From: Escherichia phage vB_EcoM_RZ
DNA: 64,000 bases
Sequence record: MW598459
Strand: one strand, 5' to 3'
The notes below the pieces were generated by a model. The model saw only the letters and a list, made by a program, of their open reading frames with translations. It was not told where the DNA came from and did no database searches. Shown piece after piece: positions 5,675-62,918 of the stretch (within the stretch, counting starts at the first letter, position 1; the number at the start of each line of letters is the position of its first letter). A program made the position numbers and the translations under genes.

Positions 5675-6613
5675 ATGGCAACTGAATCATACAACCCGAA
5701 ACAATTAAAAGATGCAATCCTTCGTCGTCTTGGTGCTCCAATCACGAATATCGAAGTTACGACCGAACAGGTTTATGATTGCATCCAGCGCGCATTAGAA
5801 TTATATGGCGAATATCACTATAATGGTTATAACAAAGGTTATCAGGCTTTTTATATTGGCCATGATGAAGTTTCACAGCAGAAATTCCGCGATGGCGTTT
5901 TCGATTTAAAAGGACGTAATATTTTTGCAGTAACGCAGATTATTCGTACTAATGTCGGTTCATTAACTTCGATGGATGGTCAAGCTACATATCCGTGGTT
6001 CACAGATTTCGTTCTGGGACTGGCCGGGATTAACGGTGGAATGGGTAGCTCATGTAACAGCTTTGGTCCAAATGCTTTTGGTGCAGACCTTGGTTATTTT
6101 ACACAGCTTATGCAATACCGTTCAATGATGCAAGACCTGATGGTTCCGCTGCCAGATTACTGGTATAATGACGATACTGAACAACTTAAAATTATGGGCA
6201 ACTTCCGTCAGGGAGATGTGATTGTAATTGAAGTTTACACCAAATCCTTTAATGGTGTTGATGCAATGGCCAGCAATACAGCTGGATATGGTTTTGCTTC
6301 GGCCGATTGTGATAATCCGTGGAATGCTGGTGCACAGTGGGATAACCCAGCGCGCAGAATAAGCGGTATGAGAGCCGGTGAGGACCTTGGACTTCAAGAT
6401 GGTGCATACAACAACCGTTGGGTGAAAGACTATGCCACGGCGCTCGTTAAGGAAGTTAACGGCAACGTATTGGCTAAACACCAGGGGATGATGATGCCAG
6501 GTGGTACCACGGTTGATGGTGTTCGTTTAATTGAAGAAGCTCGTATGGAAAAAGAACGGCTCCGCGAAGAACTTGACCTGCTGGATGCACCCGCTGGAAT
6601 ACTAATTGGGTGA
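5675..6613 (+). CDS. 13: neck protein gp13
   Basis: 312 aa (T4 gp13 about 309 aa); SD AAGAGGA; synteny wac-13-14. Confidence 0.8.
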
Positions 6614-6616
6614 TTA

Positions 6617-7252
6617 ATGGCTACTTACTATAGACTTTATGTATCAACATTTGAAACATCTAATGGGATAATGGTATATGGCGGTAAACGCCATTCACAT
6701 TATGAAGATTCTAAAGCGGATAGTTATTTCGGTTCTGGTACTATTGTCAAGCGAGCTAAACAAAAATACGGAAGGAAATGTTTAGTCGACATTACATGGT
6801 CTAAACCTTTTGAATCGCCTGCCCTATTAAAAGAAGCCGAAGCCTTACTAGTCAGTGAGCTTTTAGAAAGTTTTGATAATTGTGCAAATTTACATCCAAC
6901 AGGGGGAGGCGGACCAGAAGGTTATAGTTGTCCAGAAGATTCCCCTGCCTTTGGTAAAAAGAGAACAGCAGAATCAAGAAAACGAATGTCAGACGCAGCA
7001 AAACAAAGGGAATGGTCAGAAGAAGGATTAAAACGTCGTAAAGAATCAACAGCTCGAATGTGGATTGATTTTAAGGACAGACATCCAGATTTTTCTGATG
7101 ATAAAAATCCGGCCGCGCGTAAAATTATTACAGGCGACCTAGAATTTTGTACCGGAAGAAAATGTGCAGAATATTATTCGATAACACCGGCGACGGTCAT
7201 TTACAGATGTAAAAGTACAGCCGAAAAATGGAAATTATGGAATTATGCGTAA
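6617..7252 (+). CDS. GIY-YIG-like free-standing endonuclease (Seg-like) candidate
   Basis: N-terminal YYRLYV-x10-VYGGKR resembles the GIY-x10-YIG motif; [11 protein letters not shown] / [10 protein letters not shown] repeats resemble NUMOD-type DNA-binding motifs; no T4 gene between 13 and 14 as far as I recall. Confidence 0.5.
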
Positions 7253-8033
7253 TTCTTATGATGCAAGCTTATTCGCTCGGCTCGAAGATGGAACCGGGTA
7301 TGACAATACAAACTCGTCAGAGATACTCAACCAATATGTAAACTTTATGCATCATGAAAATACCCAGACTTTAGCTGATGCTATTGTTGCTGAAAGTATT
7401 CAGATGCGCGGAATGTCTCTATATTATATCCCAAGACAATTCGTTAAACCGGATTTGTTATTCGGTGAAGACCTTCAGAGTAAATTTGATAAAGCATGGA
7501 AATTTGCTGGCTATCTGGATACGTTTGACGCATATCAGGGTGATGGTTCTATCTTTAGTAAATTCGGTATGACTGTGAACGATGAAATCACAATATCGAT
7601 TAACCCTAATCTGTTTAAACATCAATGCAACGGAACCGAACCTATTGCAGGGGATTTGATTTATTTCCCTCTTGATAACAGTCTGTTCGAAATTACATGG
7701 GTGCAACCTTACGACCCATTCTATCAGGTAGGTCAAAACGCCATTCGTAAAATCACCGCGAGCAAATACATTTACTCCGGGGAAGAGCTTAAACCTGAAT
7801 TGCAACGGAATGAAGGTATTAATATTTCAGAATTCAGCGAGCTCGATTTACAACCAATCCACAATATCGATGGCCTTACAGATATCAGCGATATCCCTTA
7901 TGCTGAATCCAATGAGATTAACGCAGAAGCAGCTGAATATGTTAAACCATATTTTGTGCAGAATGGCCGTGGACTTGAGGCTCCTCCGAAGGCAAAACAG
8001 GATAGCTTTGACGATAGTTTCTTTGATGAATAA
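7245..8033 (+). CDS. 14: neck protein gp14
   Basis: 262 aa (T4 gp14 about 256 aa); start overlaps stop of preceding ORF (ATGCGTAA). Confidence 0.8.
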
Positions 8034-13300: not shown

Positions 13301-13323
13301 GCGCGTATAATATAAATACGCGC
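13301..13323. promoter_or_regulatory. palindrome GCGCGTAT-AATATAA-ATACGCGC containing a late-promoter TATAAATA (13311-13318)
   Basis: 8-bp perfect inverted arms; TATAAATA 18 nt upstream of the HNH ORF. Confidence 0.5.
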
Positions 13324-13335
13324 AAGGATTTACAA

Positions 13336-13941
13336 GTGATTATTTCTAAATTTGTTGAAGTTAAAATACGAAATCATGCAAAATGGTGGAGTGAATACTT
13401 AGGTAAAACTCTAACATACCATGATGTAATTTCTGTTCCAGTTGAACAAATGCCAGATAATAGTAATAAAAAGATTGAGTGTTCCTGTGATGAATGTGGG
13501 GTACATTTTGAGCGCGGCATTCAGCTGCTTCGTCGTGTTGATAAACATTTATGTAAAGCATGTTCAAGAAAAGATATTGGACAAAAGAATGTTATTGCGC
13601 AAGGTGGTGTACCAAGACCATGGCAACGCGGTGAAAAACATCATAGCTGGAAGGGTAATAAGCGCGAATTCTATTTGTATGCTCAACGCGTTCATGCATT
13701 GACAAGAGCAAAACATCTAAAGAATATTTGGTCAACATGGGAAAATGCAGATAAGATAGGAAAATGTGGAGAAGATGGTGCATATCAACTTGACCACAAA
13801 GTTTCTATTGCATATGGATTTTATAATCACATACCAGAGACTGTTATCGCTTCGCTCAACAATTTAGAAATAGTCACTTGGGAATCTAATAGGTCCAAAG
13901 GAAAATCAAATAGTATTGACTTATGGGATATATTATCCTGA
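13336..13941 (+). CDS. HNH-family homing endonuclease-like protein
   Basis: C-terminal QLDHKVSIAYGFYNHIPETVIASLNNLEIVTWESNRSKG fits an HNH/HNN motif; CxxC...CxxC zinc-finger-like pairs; GTG start after AAGGA; T4 has no gene between 18 and 19 as far as I recall. Confidence 0.6.
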   Translation: MIISKFVEVKIRNHAKWWSEYLGKTLTYHDVISVPVEQMPDNSNKKIECSCDECGVHFERGIQLLRRVDKHLCKACSRKDIGQKNVIAQGGVPRPWQRGEKHHSWKGNKREFYLYAQRVHALTRAKHLKNIWSTWENADKIGKCGEDGAYQLDHKVSIAYGFYNHIPETVIASLNNLEIVTWESNRSKGKSNSIDLWDILS

Positions 13942-20068: not shown

Positions 20069-20350
20069 TCATACCATACCATTTAAATGAACTTCTACCC
20101 GGCGCTTGATAAGGTCTCTGAAGTTAACATTGTTTTCTTGAAGTTTCAACCAGTTACCATTTTTATCTTTAGTGTGAGTAGAATAATTACCATTCCACCA
20201 GAAATCAGTGTCATATGCTAAGTTTTCATATTTTTTAACTAGTTTGTTCAGAGCATTACCATTAACACCATTTGGGTATTTGTTGACCAAGGCAATAACT
20301 TCAATTTCCAGATTTTTAAAGGTGTTCAGAAGGAAAGTTGCTTTGTTCAT
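20069..20350 (-). CDS. hypothetical protein, antisense to the late-gene cluster
   Basis: 93-aa ORF with SD GGAG and a sigma70-type early promoter upstream on the minus strand; no recognisable motif. Confidence 0.5.
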   Translation of the reverse strand: MNKATFLLNTFKNLEIEVIALVNKYPNGVNGNALNKLVKKYENLAYDTDFWWNGNYSTHTKDKNGNWLKLQENNVNFRDLIKRRVEVHLNGMV

Positions 20351-50312: not shown

Positions 50313-51449
50313 TTATTCAGGAAGGATTACTTCCGCCTGGTAGTCTAACGGAATGTAAAGTTTATGATTTTTAAGGAAAACTTTATTGATTTGAGCAATC
50401 GTTTGTTCAGTTTCCTGTGGGCGTTGATAGGTGTTCATTAATACGGAGAACAATCCCGGATATGGTTTACATAACTCTTGACCTTTAATCGCAAACTCGC
50501 GACGGTCTTTTCCTGCTAACTGTTTTTGTGCATCAAGCAACAGTCCAAGAGTGTTGGACAGATAATCCAGATGTGTTGCAGTAAAGGCAGTAACTTTTTC
50601 ACGAGCATAAGTATCGCCAGTAAACATGGCAATAACATCATCCGCGCCGCCAGCAACAACAACTTCAAACAGTCGCTCATTATTATTAATGGAGTCTTTA
50701 GTATGATGCAGAGCACAATACCATTCTGTTTTCATCTTGAACTTCTGACCGTTAGCCATCTCATAGACGAAGCCTTCAATCTCTTTCATACCGCGAACAT
50801 TCTCAATGGTTGCCGGGTCATATGCTTCAACCAGGAAAGGACGAAGCGCTGCATCTTTGAACAGCTCCTGATAAGGAATATATTCACCAGTTTCATTATG
50901 ACGAACGTTCAGTAAAATCAGGTCACGTTCCTGGTAAGGCAAAACAATGCGGTTGGTCGGTGCAACATATTCCATGTTGCATGTATAACCAGCTTCAGTG
51001 ATTTCAGTCACACGAGCCCTGAATGCACTGCGATGTTCTTGTTTAAACACCTGCAAGGATTCAGCTGCTTGGGAGCTTTTGATTGACCCTTTGGATTTAA
51101 AGGCGATATTGGTCTGGTCCATATAAGTGGAAACCAAACTACCATCAGCTTTTGCAGTAACCAGGACAACTTCATCAAGGTTAAGGTCCATGGTCATTGG
51201 ATTCTCACCCAGATTAAAGAATTTTTCCATAGGACGAGCAGCAATGCGAACTGGACCATTGTCATCCATTTCAAACATAATGCCACGGCACTCCAGCGCA
51301 TCATCAAGAAGCCAATCACTATAGGAAGCATAGTTATAGCTAAAGATGCGGAACTTAGTTTCAAATGGAGAAACAAAATCCGTATAGAAAAACTTACCTT
51401 TATCGGATTCGGCACAAAGCTTCATTAAGTTATCATATAATTCAATCAT
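50313..51449 (-). CDS. rnlA: RNA ligase 1
   Basis: 378 aa; FRIFSYNYASYSDWLLDDALECRGIMFEMD...PMEKFFNL matches remembered T4 Rnl1. Confidence 0.9.
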   Translation of the reverse strand: MIELYDNLMKLCAESDKGKFFYTDFVSPFETKFRIFSYNYASYSDWLLDDALECRGIMFEMDDNGPVRIAARPMEKFFNLGENPMTMDLNLDEVVLVTAKADGSLVSTYMDQTNIAFKSKGSIKSSQAAESLQVFKQEHRSAFRARVTEITEAGYTCNMEYVAPTNRIVLPYQERDLILLNVRHNETGEYIPYQELFKDAALRPFLVEAYDPATIENVRGMKEIEGFVYEMANGQKFKMKTEWYCALHHTKDSINNNERLFEVVVAGGADDVIAMFTGDTYAREKVTAFTATHLDYLSNTLGLLLDAQKQLAGKDRREFAIKGQELCKPYPGLFSVLMNTYQRPQETEQTIAQINKVFLKNHKLYIPLDYQAEVILPE

Positions 51450-51856
51450 TTCTTCACCTTATGTTGGTAATTCCACGGGGGATTAAAAAGCTTGATGAAC
51501 ATCGGCTCTTCCAGAGACATCGTTTCGACTGACATTGTGCCAAGTTCATTGGTCATTGACAGATTGAAACATTGTCGTGCATAGAATACCACCTTTTTGC
51601 CTTCTTGTAAAGCTTCATGTATCATCCGGGATTTGTTTGAATCACTCGTCTGTTCGATTCGGTTAATTGCAGTCCGGTAATAGTTGATACGCTTCTTAAG
51701 GTTGTTCGTCTTACCAATATACACTAGTTCATCATCAACTGAAATAGCATAGATAACATTTTTCTTGTTTGCGAGAGTAAGGATAGGGATTTTATCATCG
51801 ACTAACTCTAACTCCGCGTATTTTATAAAACTGTATTCGTCAGCGATTTGTTTCAT
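51446..51856 (-). CDS. denA: endonuclease II (GIY-YIG)
   Basis: 136 aa from MKQIADEYSFIKY; NVIYAI...DELVYIGKT...KRINYYRTAINR...FYARQCFNLSMTNELGT matches remembered T4 EndoII. Confidence 0.9.
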   Translation of the reverse strand: MKQIADEYSFIKYAELELVDDKIPILTLANKKNVIYAISVDDELVYIGKTNNLKKRINYYRTAINRIEQTSDSNKSRMIHEALQEGKKVVFYARQCFNLSMTNELGTMSVETMSLEEPMFIKLFNPPWNYQHKVKK

Positions 51857-51857
51857 A

Positions 51858-51882
51858 GACAAAAAGGGCCGAAGCCCTTTCC
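51858..51882 (-). terminator. intrinsic terminator after nrdB
   Basis: GGGCCGAAGCCC hairpin followed on minus by TTTTTG, ending 2 nt before denA ATG. Confidence 0.65.
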
Positions 51883-53061
51883 TTATAGATATTTACGGAA
51901 ACCAGCAAGAACGTTCTCATCGACGTCATTGTCAATCTGGGCTACCAGGTAAGCAGACAACTCAACTTCTTGTGGTGCTGATTGCACATTATCAGAGTTA
52001 AGATATTCGCGAATCCATGGAATCGGGTGCTTAGTAGATTCTAACACGATTTCACACGGGAGACCGCATTGCTTCATACGAGAAACCGTCAGGTAATCGA
52101 TGAACCGGTTAAGAATCTCGACGCTCAGCCCAGGGAGTCCACCATCTTTAAACAGATGCACGGCCCATTCTTTTTCCTGGCGATTAACTTCCATGAAAAT
52201 GGCTGCGGCTTCTGCTTCACATTCGTGAGCGATTTTAACCCATTCGTCACCGTCAACACCAGTCTGCAGCTGACGAAGAATATATTGGGTCCCCTTAAGG
52301 TGGAGCTGTTCATCACGGGCGATGAACTTCATTATCTTCGCATTGCCTTCCATGATTTCCATGTTCTTATGGAAGTTGAAAGTGCAAGCAAAAGATACAT
52401 AAAAACGAATAGCTTCCAGGGCATTAATGACATGCAGACAGAGATAAAGAGACTTCATCAATGCTCGTTTGGCGATAGCTTCTTGTTTGATAGCTCGTTC
52501 CAAACGTTCGTCCGCTTCGGGAGTTTCTTTGGCCAGTTCAACAAAAGCAATCTGGTTTTGCCATTGACGAGTTTTATTCAGAACATCATCATAGTAATGG
52601 CCAATGGATTCTGCACGCTTCATGATTGCATCATCTAACAGGATTTCGTCGAATACCTTCGCCGGGTCCGTATAGAGATTTCGCATGATGTGCGTATAAG
52701 AACGAGAGTGAATTGTCTCGCTGAATGTCCAGGTCTGAATCCATGTATCAAGACTTGGGTCAGAAACTAATGCGGCTAATGCTGCAGCTGGAGCACGACC
52801 CTGGATACTATCCAGAAGTGATTGGTATTTCAGGTTGTTGGTAAAAATATTTTGTTGATGTTCAGGAAGCTTATTAAATTGAGCTCCGTCCATCATCAGG
52901 TTTACTTCCTCTGGACGCCAGAAGAATGATAATTGCTTTTCTGTTAATTCTTCGAAAACTTTATGACGCTGGATATCATAACGGGCAATCCCCAATCCTG
53001 AACCGAAGAACATTGGCTCGGCTAAAACATCCACCGGAGTGGTATTAAAAACTGTACTCAT
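51883..53061 (-). CDS. nrdB: ribonucleotide reductase small subunit NrdB (uninterrupted)
   Basis: 392 aa continuous ORF (T4 NrdB 388 aa); diiron-site E..H motifs; no intron. Confidence 0.9.
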   Translation of the reverse strand: MSTVFNTTPVDVLAEPMFFGSGLGIARYDIQRHKVFEELTEKQLSFFWRPEEVNLMMDGAQFNKLPEHQQNIFTNNLKYQSLLDSIQGRAPAAALAALVSDPSLDTWIQTWTFSETIHSRSYTHIMRNLYTDPAKVFDEILLDDAIMKRAESIGHYYDDVLNKTRQWQNQIAFVELAKETPEADERLERAIKQEAIAKRALMKSLYLCLHVINALEAIRFYVSFACTFNFHKNMEIMEGNAKIMKFIARDEQLHLKGTQYILRQLQTGVDGDEWVKIAHECEAEAAAIFMEVNRQEKEWAVHLFKDGGLPGLSVEILNRFIDYLTVSRMKQCGLPCEIVLESTKHPIPWIREYLNSDNVQSAPQEVELSAYLVAQIDNDVDENVLAGFRKYL

Positions 53062-53786
53062 TTATTAACCTTTATCCTTCCTCTGACCCATCCATCGGGG
53101 ATAATTTCAGAGGATTCAATTAATTTATTTGTAAACCCGTCATTAATACAGATTTTACCACGGGCACCTTTATATTGTCGTGGAGTTATTTTATCAAATG
53201 TGGGTTGAAGCGAATATGACCATCTAAATCCATAGGCATATTGAAATTTTCCACTCGCACAATACTTGATGTTTGATGCGTTTCCATTTACGGACCGAGC
53301 TGCTTCTTGCAATGACCTAAATTTTTCAACAAATTCACCATCAAGAGTAAATTGATAAATTTCTGTAGATGGAACAGCTAACTTATTCTTTTCACTTACA
53401 ATTTGCTTAGATTCTTCACTGTGATGCTTACCCAACATACCACGGGGATGTGGGTTATTTTTCCAGTGTTCCTTAAAGAATTCAGAATTTGCTTTGGCAA
53501 ATAGCTTTCGATGGAAACTATACAAGTTATTATTAATACGATTTCCAGCTTTATCCGTTGCCATTAAAGTTAGGGCCGAGACCAATCCAAAATGACCGGG
53601 ATTTATTTTGCATAAAAGCAAATGAGCAATAAAATGTTCTCGAGCTGTTAACTCGACAAGGTTTGTTCTTTCATCAGTACCGCCCATACATCTTGGGATA
53701 ATATGATGAATCTCTTTATATTCGGTTAAAGGTTCCCGGGTTTTACCCCGGGATATTAAATTATTATAAATGTTTTGATAATTCAT
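53058..53786 (-). CDS. HNH homing endonuclease (MobE-like position)
   Basis: EIHHIIPRCMGGTDERTNLVELTAREHFIAH (HNH); GKHHSEESKQIVSEKNK (NUMOD3-like); IYQFTLDGEFVEKFRSLQEAARSV (NUMOD1-like). Confidence 0.7.
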   Translation of the reverse strand: MNYQNIYNNLISRGKTREPLTEYKEIHHIIPRCMGGTDERTNLVELTAREHFIAHLLLCKINPGHFGLVSALTLMATDKAGNRINNNLYSFHRKLFAKANSEFFKEHWKNNPHPRGMLGKHHSEESKQIVSEKNKLAVPSTEIYQFTLDGEFVEKFRSLQEAARSVNGNASNIKYCASGKFQYAYGFRWSYSLQPTFDKITPRQYKGARGKICINDGFTNKLIESSEIIPDGWVRGRIKVNK

Positions 53787-56041
53787 TACAGTTTACATGC
53801 CGAGCAATCATCAGCTTTTGGCATTTCCAATTCATAATCGTCAGTTCCCGAGCCATCACGAGTATTGTGATAGTAAAAATTCTTGATTCCGTAGTACCAA
53901 CCATACATCAAGTCGTCAAGCATAACTGACATCGGAACTTTTCCTTTCGGATAATTCTGCGGGTCATAATATGTGTTTGCTGATGCTGACTGACAAATCC
54001 ATTTCAACATAATCGCAACTTGGGTCAGATAAGGTTTGTTACCTTGCTTAGCTAACACCCATGCGTAATCGTACAATCCTTTATTGTGCTCAATATTGGG
54101 CACGACTTGATTAAAGGAACCCTCTTTTGACTCTTTAATAGAGACTGGTCCACGCGGAGGTTCGATACCGTTTGTACTGTTAGAAACTTGGGAAGATGAC
54201 TCACAAGGCATAAGTGCTGATAATGTGCTATTACGGATGCCATGTTCAACCAGGTCTTCCCGCAACTGCGCCCAGTCACAAACGTAGTTTGGAGCTGCGA
54301 TTTGGTCAATCTTTTTATTGTACCAGTCGATAGGTAATTCGCCTCGAGCCCAACGAGTGTCTGAATAATATTCGCAAGGTCCTTTTTCTTTGGCGAGCTT
54401 GATTGATGCTCGGATAAGGCCATATTGTAATCTCTCGAACAGTTCATGTGTTAAATCGTTTGCATCAGCATAGGAAGCGAAATTGCTTGCCAACCATGCA
54501 GCATAGTTAGTAACCCCAACACCCAGGTTGCGCCGTTTTTTGGCTTTCAGAGCTTCTTTAACCGGATAACCCTGGTAGTCCAACAGATTATCAAGAGCAC
54601 GAACTTGTACTTCGGCCAGCTCGTTAATTTTATCTTGGTCCTGCCAGTCAAAACTATCCAGAACAAATGCAGACAATGTGCACAATCCGATTTCAGCATC
54701 TTCGCTGTTCACATCAGTAGTCGGGATTGCAATTTCGCAGCAAAGGTTTGATTGACGAATCGGAGCCTTATCACGGATGAACGGAGTGTAGTCATTCACG
54801 TTATCGACGAACTGCGGATAAACCCTGGCTGTACCGGAACGTTCGGTCATGAATAATTCAAATACATCTTTTGCTTTGATGCGTTTCTTACGAACCGTCG
54901 GGTCTTTTTCTAAAGCTTCATATAACTCGCGGAATTTATCTGGGTTATCAAAATATGAATAATACAATTCCCCGCCAGCTTCGTGTGGACTAAACAGGGT
55001 GATGTAATCATTCTTAGCCAGTCGTTCCATCATCAGGTTATTCAGCTGGACACCATAGTCCATATGTCTGATGCGGTTTTCTTCAACGCCCTTGTTGTTC
55101 TTCAGAACGAGTAAATTTTCAACTTCCAAATGCCAAATAGGATAATAAGCAGTAGCAGCGCCGCCACGGATTCCACCTTGTGAACATGATTTAACAGCTG
55201 TTTGGAAATGTTTCCAGAACGGAATAACACCAGTATGCTTGACTTCGCCCATACCGATTTTAGAACCTTCAGCACGAATCATGCCAACGTTGATACCGAT
55301 ACCTGCACGCTTACTGATATATTCGATGATTGAATTAGCAGTTTTATTAATTGACTTCAGGGAGTCCGCCGCTTCGATAACCACACATGAACTGAACTGC
55401 CTGGTAGGTGTTCTGGCGCCCGCCATGATAGGTGTGGGCAACGAAACCTGTCGGGTGGATACTGCATCATAAAAACGGCAAACGTGCTTCAGACGGTCCG
55501 TTGGTTCATCCTGGTGCAGTGCCATGCCAATGGCCATGATAGCGAACTGTGGAGTCTCATAGATTTTCCCAGTGGTTTTATCTTTAACCAGGTATTTCTC
55601 TTTAAGCTGCATTGCGCCTGCATAAGTCAGGTCAAAATCGCGTTCGTGCTTAATACGAGATTCCAGGTAAGTAATCTCTTCAGCGGAATAGCTTGACAAC
55701 AGCTCCGGGTCATATTTACCTTCATTAACACAATAAGAAATCTGGTCAATAAAAGAACGTGGCTCAAATTGTCCATAAACATCTTTACGCAGAGCAAACA
55801 TCGTAGCCTTCGCTGCAACGTATTGGTAATCTGGTTCTTCAACCGAGATAAGCCCAGCAGATACTTTGATGATAACCGTCTGAATATCGCGAGTAGTCAT
55901 ACCATCGCGCAGATGTGGTTTAATTGTTTCGTATAATTCGTATGGGTCGATATTAGTTCCTTCACATGACCAGGAAAGAACTTTAATAATTTTTTGGCCA
56001 TCAAAATCTTGAGATACACCACTACTTTTTTGTACTTGCAT
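53786..56041 (-). CDS. nrdA: ribonucleotide reductase large subunit NrdA
   Basis: 751 aa (T4 754 aa); class Ia RNR motifs (NLCCEI active-site Cys region, C-terminal CSACKL). Confidence 0.9.
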   Translation of the reverse strand: MQVQKSSGVSQDFDGQKIIKVLSWSCEGTNIDPYELYETIKPHLRDGMTTRDIQTVIIKVSAGLISVEEPDYQYVAAKATMFALRKDVYGQFEPRSFIDQISYCVNEGKYDPELLSSYSAEEITYLESRIKHERDFDLTYAGAMQLKEKYLVKDKTTGKIYETPQFAIMAIGMALHQDEPTDRLKHVCRFYDAVSTRQVSLPTPIMAGARTPTRQFSSCVVIEAADSLKSINKTANSIIEYISKRAGIGINVGMIRAEGSKIGMGEVKHTGVIPFWKHFQTAVKSCSQGGIRGGAATAYYPIWHLEVENLLVLKNNKGVEENRIRHMDYGVQLNNLMMERLAKNDYITLFSPHEAGGELYYSYFDNPDKFRELYEALEKDPTVRKKRIKAKDVFELFMTERSGTARVYPQFVDNVNDYTPFIRDKAPIRQSNLCCEIAIPTTDVNSEDAEIGLCTLSAFVLDSFDWQDQDKINELAEVQVRALDNLLDYQGYPVKEALKAKKRRNLGVGVTNYAAWLASNFASYADANDLTHELFERLQYGLIRASIKLAKEKGPCEYYSDTRWARGELPIDWYNKKIDQIAAPNYVCDWAQLREDLVEHGIRNSTLSALMPCESSSQVSNSTNGIEPPRGPVSIKESKEGSFNQVVPNIEHNKGLYDYAWVLAKQGNKPYLTQVAIMLKWICQSASANTYYDPQNYPKGKVPMSVMLDDLMYGWYYGIKNFYYHNTRDGSGTDDYELEMPKADDCSACKL

Positions 56042-60668: not shown

Positions 60669-61574
60669 TTAAAGGCCAGCCAGCAGGTCATCAAGACCAT
60701 CATCGGAAGGCTCTGGAGTGCTTGGGGCAGTCGCAGTGCGTTCAGACTTAGCAGGTTTGCTGGAAGTGAAGTCTTCCATATCTTTATCGAAATCGTCCAG
60801 GTCAGCACCCAGTTTATCGGCTTGTGCAGCAGCTTTAGAAGCAGCGCCACCGAGAGCAGCTGTGCCCATTACTTTAGAGAATTTCTTCTGATTCTCTTCA
60901 AGAGATTTAAATACCAGCAATTCATTCAGGTCAGACATGTCGTCCCAAAGTTTTTTCTGGAATGCTTCATCATTGATACCGGCGATTTCAGACTGGTTCA
61001 TGAATTTGGAATCATCGTAGTTTTTATAACCGGAAACCAGTTTAGATTTCAGTACGAAGTTTGCACCATCAAACGGACAAGTTACATCAACAGCTTCTTC
61101 GCCCATGTCAACATCAACTTCAACCATCTGGTTGATTTTGTCCATGATTTTCTTACCAAAGCGATATTTGAATACTTGGCCTTCGTTAGACGGAACAGCA
61201 GGGTCTTTAATGACCAGGATGTTAGCCCAGTAAGAAGTATTACGCTTCAGTTTACGATATTCAGATTCGTTTGTATTGTACAGGTCATTCTTATTCATGT
61301 ACGCACACACAGGGCAGTTTTCATAATCGCCGTGAGTAGAAGTACAGTTTTCAATATACCATTGACCAGCATTTTTAAAGCCGTGGTTAACGAGCTTGAT
61401 GAATGGAGATGGATTTTCTTCATTCTTAGAAGGCAGGAAACGAATAACCGCAGAGCCGACGCCATCAGTATCTTTCAGTTTCCATTCTTTTTTATCGTCA
61501 GAAGAGAAACCAGCGCCACCTTTCAGAGCGTTAAGGGAAGCAGCCAGGTCAGCAGGGTTTTTACGTTTAAACAT
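60669..61574 (-). CDS. 32: single-stranded DNA-binding protein gp32
   Basis: MFKRK...EWKLK...[11 protein letters not shown]...LVNHGFK...WYIENC.STHGDY; acidic C-terminus; matches remembered T4 gp32 (301 aa). Confidence 0.95.
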
Positions 61575-61629
61575 AGACATATGATTTTCCTTAGATTATT
61601 TGATTTTTAGCAGTTGTTTTGATTACGTA

Positions 61630-62268
61630 TTAATTATACTTCAAAGTGATTGAAGCGATAAACTTTTGAAATTCAGAATCAAGATGGGGATTCCATCCTA
61701 ATTTGAATTTATTTATAATGGAAATACCGGTCGTGTGTGTACACGGTAAACCAGTTTCTCTTGCCATAATAACTGGACCAAGTCTGGAAGTTCTATGCGG
61801 TCCTATATACCAGTCATAATATATTCCAGCATTTAACCAAACTAAATGAGCACCTTTAGCTATTGTATTAGGATGTTCCCAAGGCAATAAACCTTTAAGG
61901 TGAGAATTTAATTTCATATTTATTTTATGTGATTCTGATTTTGGTTTACCTTTTAATGAAGACTTAAAGGTTCCACGAGCACTCGCCTTATTGAAAAACA
62001 ATGGCGATTTAACCACATTATAGTGTTGATGGTAAAACTCTTCTTCTGACAACACATCGTCACACACATGCAGAATTTTAACGGTTGGTTTTTCAGACAA
62101 TGCCTCAATAAAACGAGATTGTTTGCATGAAGACCAGTATTCTTTATTATGTGAATCAATTATAACACCATTTTCAAAAGCACAATTATGCTTTGACCCA
62201 ATGTAAAAATAAGGAGGCGTTTTATTTTTCAGACGAGTTTCAAATGTAAACCAATATACAACATTCAA
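61630..62268 (-). CDS. GIY-YIG-like free-standing endonuclease candidate (SegG-like position)
   Basis: 212 aa; N-terminal VVYWFTF-x14-YFYIGSK resembles GIY...YIG; located between genes 59 and 32. Confidence 0.45.
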   Translation of the reverse strand: MNVVYWFTFETRLKNKTPPYFYIGSKHNCAFENGVIIDSHNKEYWSSCKQSRFIEALSEKPTVKILHVCDDVLSEEEFYHQHYNVVKSPLFFNKASARGTFKSSLKGKPKSESHKINMKLNSHLKGLLPWEHPNTIAKGAHLVWLNAGIYYDWYIGPHRTSRLGPVIMARETGLPCTHTTGISIINKFKLGWNPHLDSEFQKFIASITLKYN

Positions 62269-62918
62269 AACTTACACCCTTTAACAGTCTCGATGAACAA
62301 TTTACGGGCTTCAAGAGAATCGATATTTAAGATTTTCTTATAAGCATTTAGTTTAGTTGAATACTTTTCCCAAACCAAGTCGTTAGTCTGTTCATCATGT
62401 TGGTCTATTATACCTAAAAATGAATCAAGCAAACAAAACGTTTCAAATGAAATAACATTCGATTGGAGAAGTTTGAAAATATAACTTGTATTCACTTTAG
62501 TATTATACTCGAAAATCTCTTGGAGCGATTTGACTTCGACTTTCTTACTGAAGTAATAGATGTTCTTTATATCATCTTCGTATACTTGTCTAATTCTTTT
62601 AAGTCGGCCAATGTATTCTCTATAAAATATCAGAGCATCGGCATCACTTATATCGCCTATCCATGCATCCTGGTTCGCAACCAGGTTTGACATGAATATT
62701 AACGTTAATTCTTTAAGAGTGTACTTATCGCTAAGCTTTTCGAAAAAATACTTATCGCGACGTTTTTGATAAGCACTATCGGAGATTCGCATGGTCCAGT
62801 TATATTTGATAATATCATAACGACCCGAAAAATGCTGTTTGATGGATAAGTACAGTTGGTATACTGATTTACCATTTATATATCGGTTGTTATTTGGAGG
62901 CATGCGAATCGTAATCAT
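62265..62918 (-). CDS. 59: helicase loader gp59
   Basis: 217 aa; GKSVYQLYL.IKQH..G.YD.IKYNW.MR.SD.AYQKRRDKYFF.KLS.KY.LKEL.LIF.SNLVANQDAWIGDISDADAL matches remembered T4 gp59. Confidence 0.9.
   Translation of the reverse strand: MITIRMPPNNNRYINGKSVYQLYLSIKQHFSGRYDIIKYNWTMRISDSAYQKRRDKYFFEKLSDKYTLKELTLIFMSNLVANQDAWIGDISDADALIFYREYIGRLKRIRQVYEDDIKNIYYFSKKVEVKSLQEIFEYNTKVNTSYIFKLLQSNVISFETFCLLDSFLGIIDQHDEQTNDLVWEKYSTKLNAYKKILNIDSLEARKLFIETVKGCKF

Follow-up and report, generated by a model that had tools for sequence, protein, structure and literature searches.

What kind of gene lies between gene 59 and gene 32 of Escherichia phage vB_EcoM_RZ, and does it act on its surroundings as segG of phage T4 does? 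T4 segG encodes a proven mobile GIY-YIG endonuclease that targets gene 32, and it is a promoter-less cassette (PMC2988022, PMC535899, PMC2330249). We analysed a 64,000-nucleotide stretch of the phage genome (sequence record MW598459), referred to here as the window. The window belongs to a Gaprivervirus, and its nearest records at the DNA level are DK-13 (98.7%) and SP18 (97.9%). The first-pass annotation had described a 212-aa ORF between the helicase loader and SSB genes with a 4-nt overlap to gene 59, and both the coordinates and the flanking Pfam matches agree with this description:

62265-62918, minus strand: gene 59, helicase loader (Pfam T4_Gp59_N, 1.9e-48; T4_Gp59_C, 2.8e-40)
61630-62268, minus strand: very probable segG-like homing endonuclease gene, free-standing, 212 aa, with a TTG start coupled to the gene 59 stop
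60669-61580, minus strand: gene 32, SSB (Pfam gp32, 1.6e-50)

Both neighbours share the orientation of the ORF, which is situated upstream of gene 32, and the gene order rnh-dsbA-33-59-ORF-32-frd is identical to that of T4. Its start codon is a TTG (62268-62266) that overlaps the TGA stop codon of gene 59 (62267-62265); the minus-strand text at this overlap reads ...AAG TTT TGA / TTG AAT GTT, and the N-terminus of the product is MNVVYWFTFETRLKNKTPPYFYIGSK. T4 SegG, which starts with ATG, aligns with the ORF residue for residue from position 1 (MNIVYWFTFEDRVKNKTPPYYYIGSK; MNIVYWFTF... in T4 versus MNVVYWFTF... here), and this makes the TTG start credible. The TTG start is further supported because any other in-frame start would lose the conserved first strand. 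The same TTG-over-TGA start is annotated in SP18, VR7, NC-G, UPEC07 and DK-13. The ORF is under purifying selection, with a dN/dS of 0.23 against the 71%-identical copy in Dhakavirus phage NC-G (N-terminal domain 0.19, C-terminal domain 0.27); gp32 of the same phage pair gives 0.17. Because of this constraint and a full-length match to PHROG 7504 (2.9e-91, residues 1-205), the ORF is not a chance reading frame. A search of every ORF in the window encoding 90 aa or more found no paralogue of either of its domains.

The proposal that this gene is the counterpart of T4 segG at the 59/32 locus was borne out by the shared neighbours and orientation, by membership of the same PHROG and by direct alignment. 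BLASTP aligned the ORF with T4 SegG at 40% identity over 208 aa (E=1e-45), and T4 SegG (gp32.1) also matches PHROG 7504 over its full length (1.3e-133). The two proteins are nearly equal in length (210 aa in T4, 212 aa here), both genes are absent from some close relatives, and the 3' end of the ORF appears to overlap the gene 32 regulatory region as that of T4 segG does. They differ in their starts, which in T4 is an ATG located after the gene 59 stop codon rather than a TTG overlapping it. A tblastn search with the ORF against 50,697 phage records returned three tiers of matches: 99.5-100% in a few gapriverviruses, approximately 71% in Dhakavirus phage NC-G, and approximately 40% over 94-96% of the length in the gene annotated segG in T4-like phages. 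Based on these comparisons, the ORF is very probably a free-standing, two-domain homing endonuclease gene of the T4 SegG family.

The gene is already known. In SP18, the CDS ADO19595.1, annotated as "segG homing endonuclease", translates to the same protein as the ORF (compared by eye), and the identification is therefore correct but ordinary. Orthologues are annotated as segG or homing endonuclease in SP18, VR7, UPEC07 and DK-13. The SP18 segG and the corresponding CDSs of UPEC07, DK-13, TH22 and TH55 represent the same gene in sister gapriverviruses, with no substantive difference; we found no experimental characterisation of the gene in these five phages in the literature consulted.

The first-pass annotation had also counted three other endonuclease-like ORFs in the window and had considered the T4 segD and segE positions to be empty. 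The features that bear on this are as follows:

6617-7252, plus strand: Seg-like GIY-YIG homing endonuclease ORF, 211 aa (phrog_314, 2.1e-29; Y-F-G-S-G motif)
53058-53786, minus strand: HNH MobE-like homing endonuclease ORF, 242 aa (phrog_655, 5.9e-58)
51446-51862: denA, a GIY-YIG enzyme that is not a homing endonuclease
20069-20350, minus strand: 93-aa ORF at the position and in the orientation of T4 segD (phrog_6003, unknown function, 3.6e-47)

The window thus contains two further ORFs confirmed as homing-endonuclease-like, and denA does not belong in this category. The Seg-like ORF is located between neck genes 13 (5675-6613) and 14 (7245-8033), which are contiguous in DK-13, so it is another presence/absence endonuclease gene; it has no Pfam GIY-YIG match. 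The MobE-like ORF lies between nrdA (53786-56041) and nrdB (51883-53061), the position of T4 mobE. The segE position is indeed empty, with a gap of 15 bp between inh and uvsW, but the segD position is not, as it is occupied by the 93-aa ORF, which runs antisense between gene 23, for the major capsid protein, and gene 24. We considered this ORF as a SegD remnant and rejected it for lack of similarity (BLASTP E=3.1). Elsewhere in the window, between the tail sheath and tail tube genes, gp19.1 (13336-13941, plus strand, 201 aa) matches phrog_5104, of unknown function; the sequence TATAAATA occurs at 13311-13318, just upstream, and no endonuclease signature was found in the protein.

The N-terminal domain of the segG-like ORF corresponds to the following feature:

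61975-62268, minus strand: GIY-YIG-type nuclease domain, residues 1-98, 60% identical to T4 SegG

The suggestion that this N-terminus fits GIY-YIG was upheld by a profile link, by the predicted fold and by invariant residues, with the qualification that the first motif reads VVY (residues 3-5) and not GIY; the second is YIG (residues 22-24). The ORF matches PHROG 314 with an E-value of 6.3e-10 (residues 13-152, profile positions 184-319), and the same region of this profile is matched by I-TevI (5.9e-51, 177-389) and T4 SegD (5.4e-57). PHROG 314 thereby links the ORF to proven GIY-YIG homing endonucleases. The predicted fold of the domain is the GIY-YIG alpha/beta fold, and in a Foldseek search of the PDB with this model I-TevI ranked first, although not significantly (E=1.4). 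An alignment of 23 sequences, including T4 SegG, identifies Y5, R12, Y22-I23-G24, S25, K26, Y44-W45-S46-S47, E76 and N93 as invariant residues of the nuclease domain. Among them, Y5, Y22-I23-G24, E76 and N93 come in the order in which one would expect the GIY, YIG, Glu and Asn motifs.

The profile check had a mixed outcome, positive for PHROG 314 and negative for Pfam and NCBIfam. The ORF has no Pfam match at E<=1 and no match in the NCBIfam scan. The Pfam GIY-YIG model (PF01541) gave no match at E<=10 in any of the 23 family members, T4 SegG included, whereas the controls were matched (I-TevI at 2.1e-18 and denA of the window at 7.2e-6). Since T4 SegG and the whole set of 23 members fail while the controls pass, the missing match is uninformative, and the Pfam model misses the entire SegG family. 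Direct routes to a known structure were similarly unproductive: phmmer with the ORF and hmmsearch with the family profile found nothing relevant among PDB sequences, and hhalign of the family alignment against I-TevI, or against a three-sequence alignment of I-TevI, SegD and a Seg-like protein, gave no meaningful alignment of the nuclease domain.

The active site can be placed provisionally by comparison with the catalytic domain of I-TevI (PDB 1LN0), the archetype of GIY-YIG homing endonucleases. In the predicted model, E76 is part of a helix (residues 72-82) and N93 lies in the loop that follows; matched by position and by eye, these residues are the putative counterparts of the catalytic E75 and N90 of I-TevI. 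The family alignment contains no invariant arginine at residues 25-60 that would correspond to I-TevI R27, and R52 varies. A beta-hairpin and an invariant EYWSS motif stand in the SegG family where I-TevI has the R27 helix, and this motif resembles, by eye, the Y-x-G-S-G of SegD and of the other Seg-like ORF in the window. Judged from the alignment, the invariant R12 and K26 could replace the catalytic arginine. I-TevI differs from the ORF in several further respects: the two do not match significantly in direct sequence or profile comparisons, the distance between the tyrosines of the two motifs is 11 residues in I-TevI and 17 in the ORF, the DNA-binding domain is of another kind, and I-TevI is encoded within an intron rather than by a free-standing ORF.

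The remainder of the protein corresponds to a second domain:

61633-61935, minus strand: all-helical putative DNA-binding domain, residues ~112-211 (PWEHP ... YYDWY ... KFKxGWNPxLD)

This domain probably binds DNA. It is 23% identical to the C-terminal, specificity domain of T4 SegG, and the PW and GWxPxxD motifs are common to both. In its predicted structure it resembles HTH regulators. This resemblance, together with the absence of any curated Pfam or NCBIfam match and the apparent overlap of the ORF with the gene 32 control region, would fit a non-nuclease DNA- or RNA-binding regulator of gene 59/32 expression that is merely Seg-like. We regard such a regulator as very improbable, given that the N-terminal domain has I-TevI as its best structural match, is tied through PHROG 314 to I-TevI and SegD, and shares 60% identity with the nuclease domain of the experimentally characterised T4 SegG.

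Comparison of alleles indicates that the C-terminal domain is exchanged between related enzymes. An alternative allele occupies the same locus in TH15, where it is intact, and in VR7, where it is frameshifted; it is also found in P0011-P0023. The nuclease domain of the VR7 gp32.1/TH15 allele is 81% identical to that of the ORF, and the insertion point and TTG-over-TGA start are shared. The C-terminal half, in contrast, is unrelated and consists of NUMOD3-like repeats followed by a zinc-finger-like end (CxxC...HxxxC). In line with this, the only Pfam matches among the 23 family members were weak NUMOD3 or zinc-finger matches in members of the alternative allele type. The annotated VR7 CDS gp32.1 (182 aa; L005, 1151-1880) is a frameshifted copy of the 223-aa TH15 endonuclease (L012), and its missing C-terminus (…NIHPKGFKGKKLPRAICDLCGYETSINHLKRHRDKCALNKK) can be read in another frame.

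The C-terminal module of the ORF (PWE…YYDW…F(K/R)SGWNPxxD) also occurs away from this locus. In the Ackermannviridae Dickeya phage Ds5CZ it stands behind an HNH domain (QHB41569, PHROG 655 + 26163; L020, 751-1566), in a gene located after nrdB/glutaredoxin. In Mosigvirus AV114 it belongs to a SegG-like gene that contains a NUMOD3 insert and is positioned between gene 49 and nrdD (L021, 1501-2322). MobE-like HNH endonucleases of PHROG 655, as represented by Ds5CZ, thus carry a C-terminal module like that of the ORF, but differ from it in having an HNH rather than a GIY-YIG nuclease and in their genomic location. The reuse of the module in Ds5CZ and AV114 therefore points to domain shuffling among homing endonucleases.

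The 59/32 locus is found in three states among gapriverviruses. DK-13, TH22, TH55, UPEC07 and SP18 (five genomes) carry this gene, VR7 and TH15 (two) carry the alternative allele, and approximately 20, including VR20, CJ20, UPEC01, VR25, VR26, P8 and TH44, are empty; the same three states occur in Dhakavirus. The DNA that distinguishes carriers from empty-site phages is as follows:

61661-62279, minus strand: carrier-only DNA, missing in the empty-site phages VR20, CJ20, UPEC01, VR25, VR26, P8 and TH44

Homology to the empty-site phages stops at 62280 and restarts at 61660, and the GC content of the carrier-only DNA is 33.6%, compared with a window mean of 41%. The Dhakavirus insertion sits precisely between the stop codon of gene 59 and a TGCTTCA box. 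Its Gaprivervirus counterpart stops immediately ahead of the equivalent box, CGCTTCA, which carrier and empty-site genomes have in common. The empty site of Dhakavirus JS98 shows the normal gp59 end (...CKF*) followed directly by TGCTTCA. In VR20 and CJ20 (L004/L006, 1139-1169), gp59 lacks the ...CKF* end and continues as …NCQITLQSL* through the gene 32 promoter-like box. We considered whether the empty sites are simple deletions of the gene, and rejected this because they have a 13-nt junction of their own and a gp59 with five extra codons. Judged by these genome comparisons, the gene behaves as a mobile element. Its sporadic distribution, typical of selfish genes and not of regulators, also speaks against the regulatory role considered above.

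The 3' end of the ORF coincides with candidate control signals of gene 32:

61630-61660, minus strand: last 30 nt of the ORF, common to the empty-site phages, where they encode the 5-aa gp59 extension in another frame
61659-61651 and 61638-61633, minus strand: MotA-box-like ATCGCTTCA, 12-nt spacer and TATAAT, identified by eye against the T4 consensus
About 61638-61656, minus strand: small 7-bp hairpin within the last 30 nt of the ORF
61667-61711, minus strand: long near-perfect RNA hairpin within the 3' portion of the ORF, immediately following TATAAATA
61710-61717, minus strand: match to the T4 late-promoter consensus, TATAAATA, within the ORF and pointing toward gene 32

Because the last 30 nt are common to the empty-site phages, this part of the ORF is derived from the recipient. 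The arrangement ATCGCTTCA-N12-TATAAT looks like a T4-type middle promoter for gene 32. The late-promoter consensus occurs at 19 sites in the window, compared with 4.1 expected, and the copy at 61710-61717 is one of four on the minus strand. The region 61575-61725 (151 nt) has a fold z of -3.9, and the hairpin at 61667-61711 could stabilise or process the 5' end of gene 32 mRNA. A sigma-70 promoter and terminator scan returned nothing on the coding strand, with a tool that excludes T4 middle and late promoters, and an Rfam scan of 61400-61800 gave only chance-level matches to a gene 32 operator or pseudoknot family. This layout is reminiscent of T4, where the middle and late promoters of gene 32 lie inside segG and the segG frame reaches the 5' arm of the gene 32 mRNA pseudoknot (PMC2988022, PMC535899); the T4 segG/32 transcripts are processed by RNase E (PMC2988022). 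Borjac-Natour et al. proposed that T4 segG is chimeric, having been extended into the sequence of the recipient (PMC2988022, PMC535899). The window and NC-G show such an extension directly, since both can be compared with relatives whose site is empty.

These signals raise the question of whether the ORF is a domesticated or decaying remnant, kept for the promoters and 5' RNA structures of gene 32 and no longer cutting or moving. The late-promoter consensus, the MotA-like box with its -10 element and the hairpins in the 3' end are what such a remnant would retain; the weak TTG start and the lack of an invariant arginine at the canonical catalytic position point the same way, and the frameshifted VR7 allele shows that decay does occur at this locus. 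Nevertheless, we consider a remnant unlikely. The dN/dS values of both domains are similar to that of gp32, neither the YIG motif nor the putative catalytic residues E76 and N93 vary, and the active T4 SegG (PMC2988022) matches the ORF at every invariant column of the 23-sequence alignment. The near-identical block described below also argues for a gene that has moved recently.

To compare the flanks, we aligned five carrier, two alternative-allele and seven empty-site genomes. This alignment delineated the following segment:

61628-62522, minus strand: near-invariant haplotype block in the five carriers, with two variable sites, both inside the endonuclease gene

Besides the endonuclease gene itself, the block takes in 242 bp from the 3' end of gene 59 but just 33 bp towards gene 32. 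Within the 179 bp upstream of the gene, carriers differ from each other at 0/179 positions, whereas empty-site phages differ at 10-19/179. In every other segment of the flanks, the window is no more distant from empty-site phages than from other carriers; for example, it differs from empty-site TH44 at 8/959 and 14/731 positions, compared with 14-19/959 and 25-33/731 for the other carriers. Seven substitutions are fixed between carriers and empty-site phages, all in the 3' end of gene 59 (62405, 62403, 62402, 62355, 62322, 62307 and 62286), and include a GACC (carrier)/AATA (empty-site) cluster at 62402-62405. None is fixed in gene 32 between the five carriers and the seven empty-site phages, a small sample on which the haplotype argument as a whole is based. 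A near-identical block of 0.9 kb in five otherwise mosaic genomes points to recent horizontal spread. We infer that the block is a co-conversion tract; on the sequence evidence, homing with co-conversion would be expected to leave such a footprint in mosaic backgrounds.

Reasoning from T4 SegG and other Seg enzymes, we expect the ORF to lack a promoter of its own and to depend for a low level of translation on coupling to gene 59 through the TTG over its stop codon. During co-infection, the enzyme would make a double-strand break near the 59/32 boundary in the genome of a relative that lacks the gene. Repair would then copy the carrier genome, so that the endonuclease gene and the adjacent markers would be co-converted and spread. 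For cutting followed by copying through double-strand-break repair, the models are T4 SegG, SegF, SegE and SegB (PMC2988022, PMC2330249). Clean deletion of the ORF would be disfavoured because its 3' end spans the gene 32 promoter-like site and the late-promoter consensus.

The site of this predicted cleavage bears directly on the comparison with T4. The simplest expectation would be an exact equivalent of T4 SegG that cuts within the coding region of gene 32 in relatives without the endonuclease and excludes their gene 32 markers. The shared family, locus and orientation, the homologous C-terminal domains with their GWxPxxD and PW motifs, and the known gene 32 target of T4 SegG (PMC2988022) all favour this, but we find it somewhat doubtful. 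The C-terminal domains are just 23% identical, no gene 32 substitution is fixed between carrier and empty-site phages, and the block extends for 33 bp on the gene 32 side in all carriers (no more than ~145 bp in a subset) versus 242 bp into gene 59. The haplotype data thus suggest co-conversion of gene 59 and not of gene 32, and the target may differ from that of T4 SegG. Since the specificity domain has diverged, and both the block and the fixed substitutions lie on the gene 59 side, we lean towards the 3' end of gene 59 or the empty 59/32 junction as the predicted target.

A more specific proposal, which we put forward tentatively, is that the ORF represents a retargeted SegG allele that cuts the 3' end of gene 59 (near 62402-62405) or the empty junction and drags gene 59 markers along with it. 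Joined to this retargeting, and held no more firmly, is the idea that the 59/32 locus of Gaprivervirus and Dhakavirus may serve as an arena in which one nuclease domain combines with swapped DNA-binding modules that replace each other. The two modules would be the helical type described here, also present in HNH enzymes, and the NUMOD3/zinc-finger type of the alternative allele.

For annotation, these results mean that a missing Pfam match is not evidence against a Seg nuclease, because the model is blind to the SegG family, including the proven T4 enzyme. The 59/32 locus offers a clean natural example of a free-standing homing endonuclease, in which presence/absence polymorphism is accompanied by allele replacement through domain swapping and by a sharply bounded, asymmetric block that we attribute to co-conversion. 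If the target is gene 59 or the junction, the locus would show a single endonuclease family switching its specificity while the insertion site stays the same. Such switching, if true, would be of moderate interest to the homing-endonuclease field, although unsurprising in kind.
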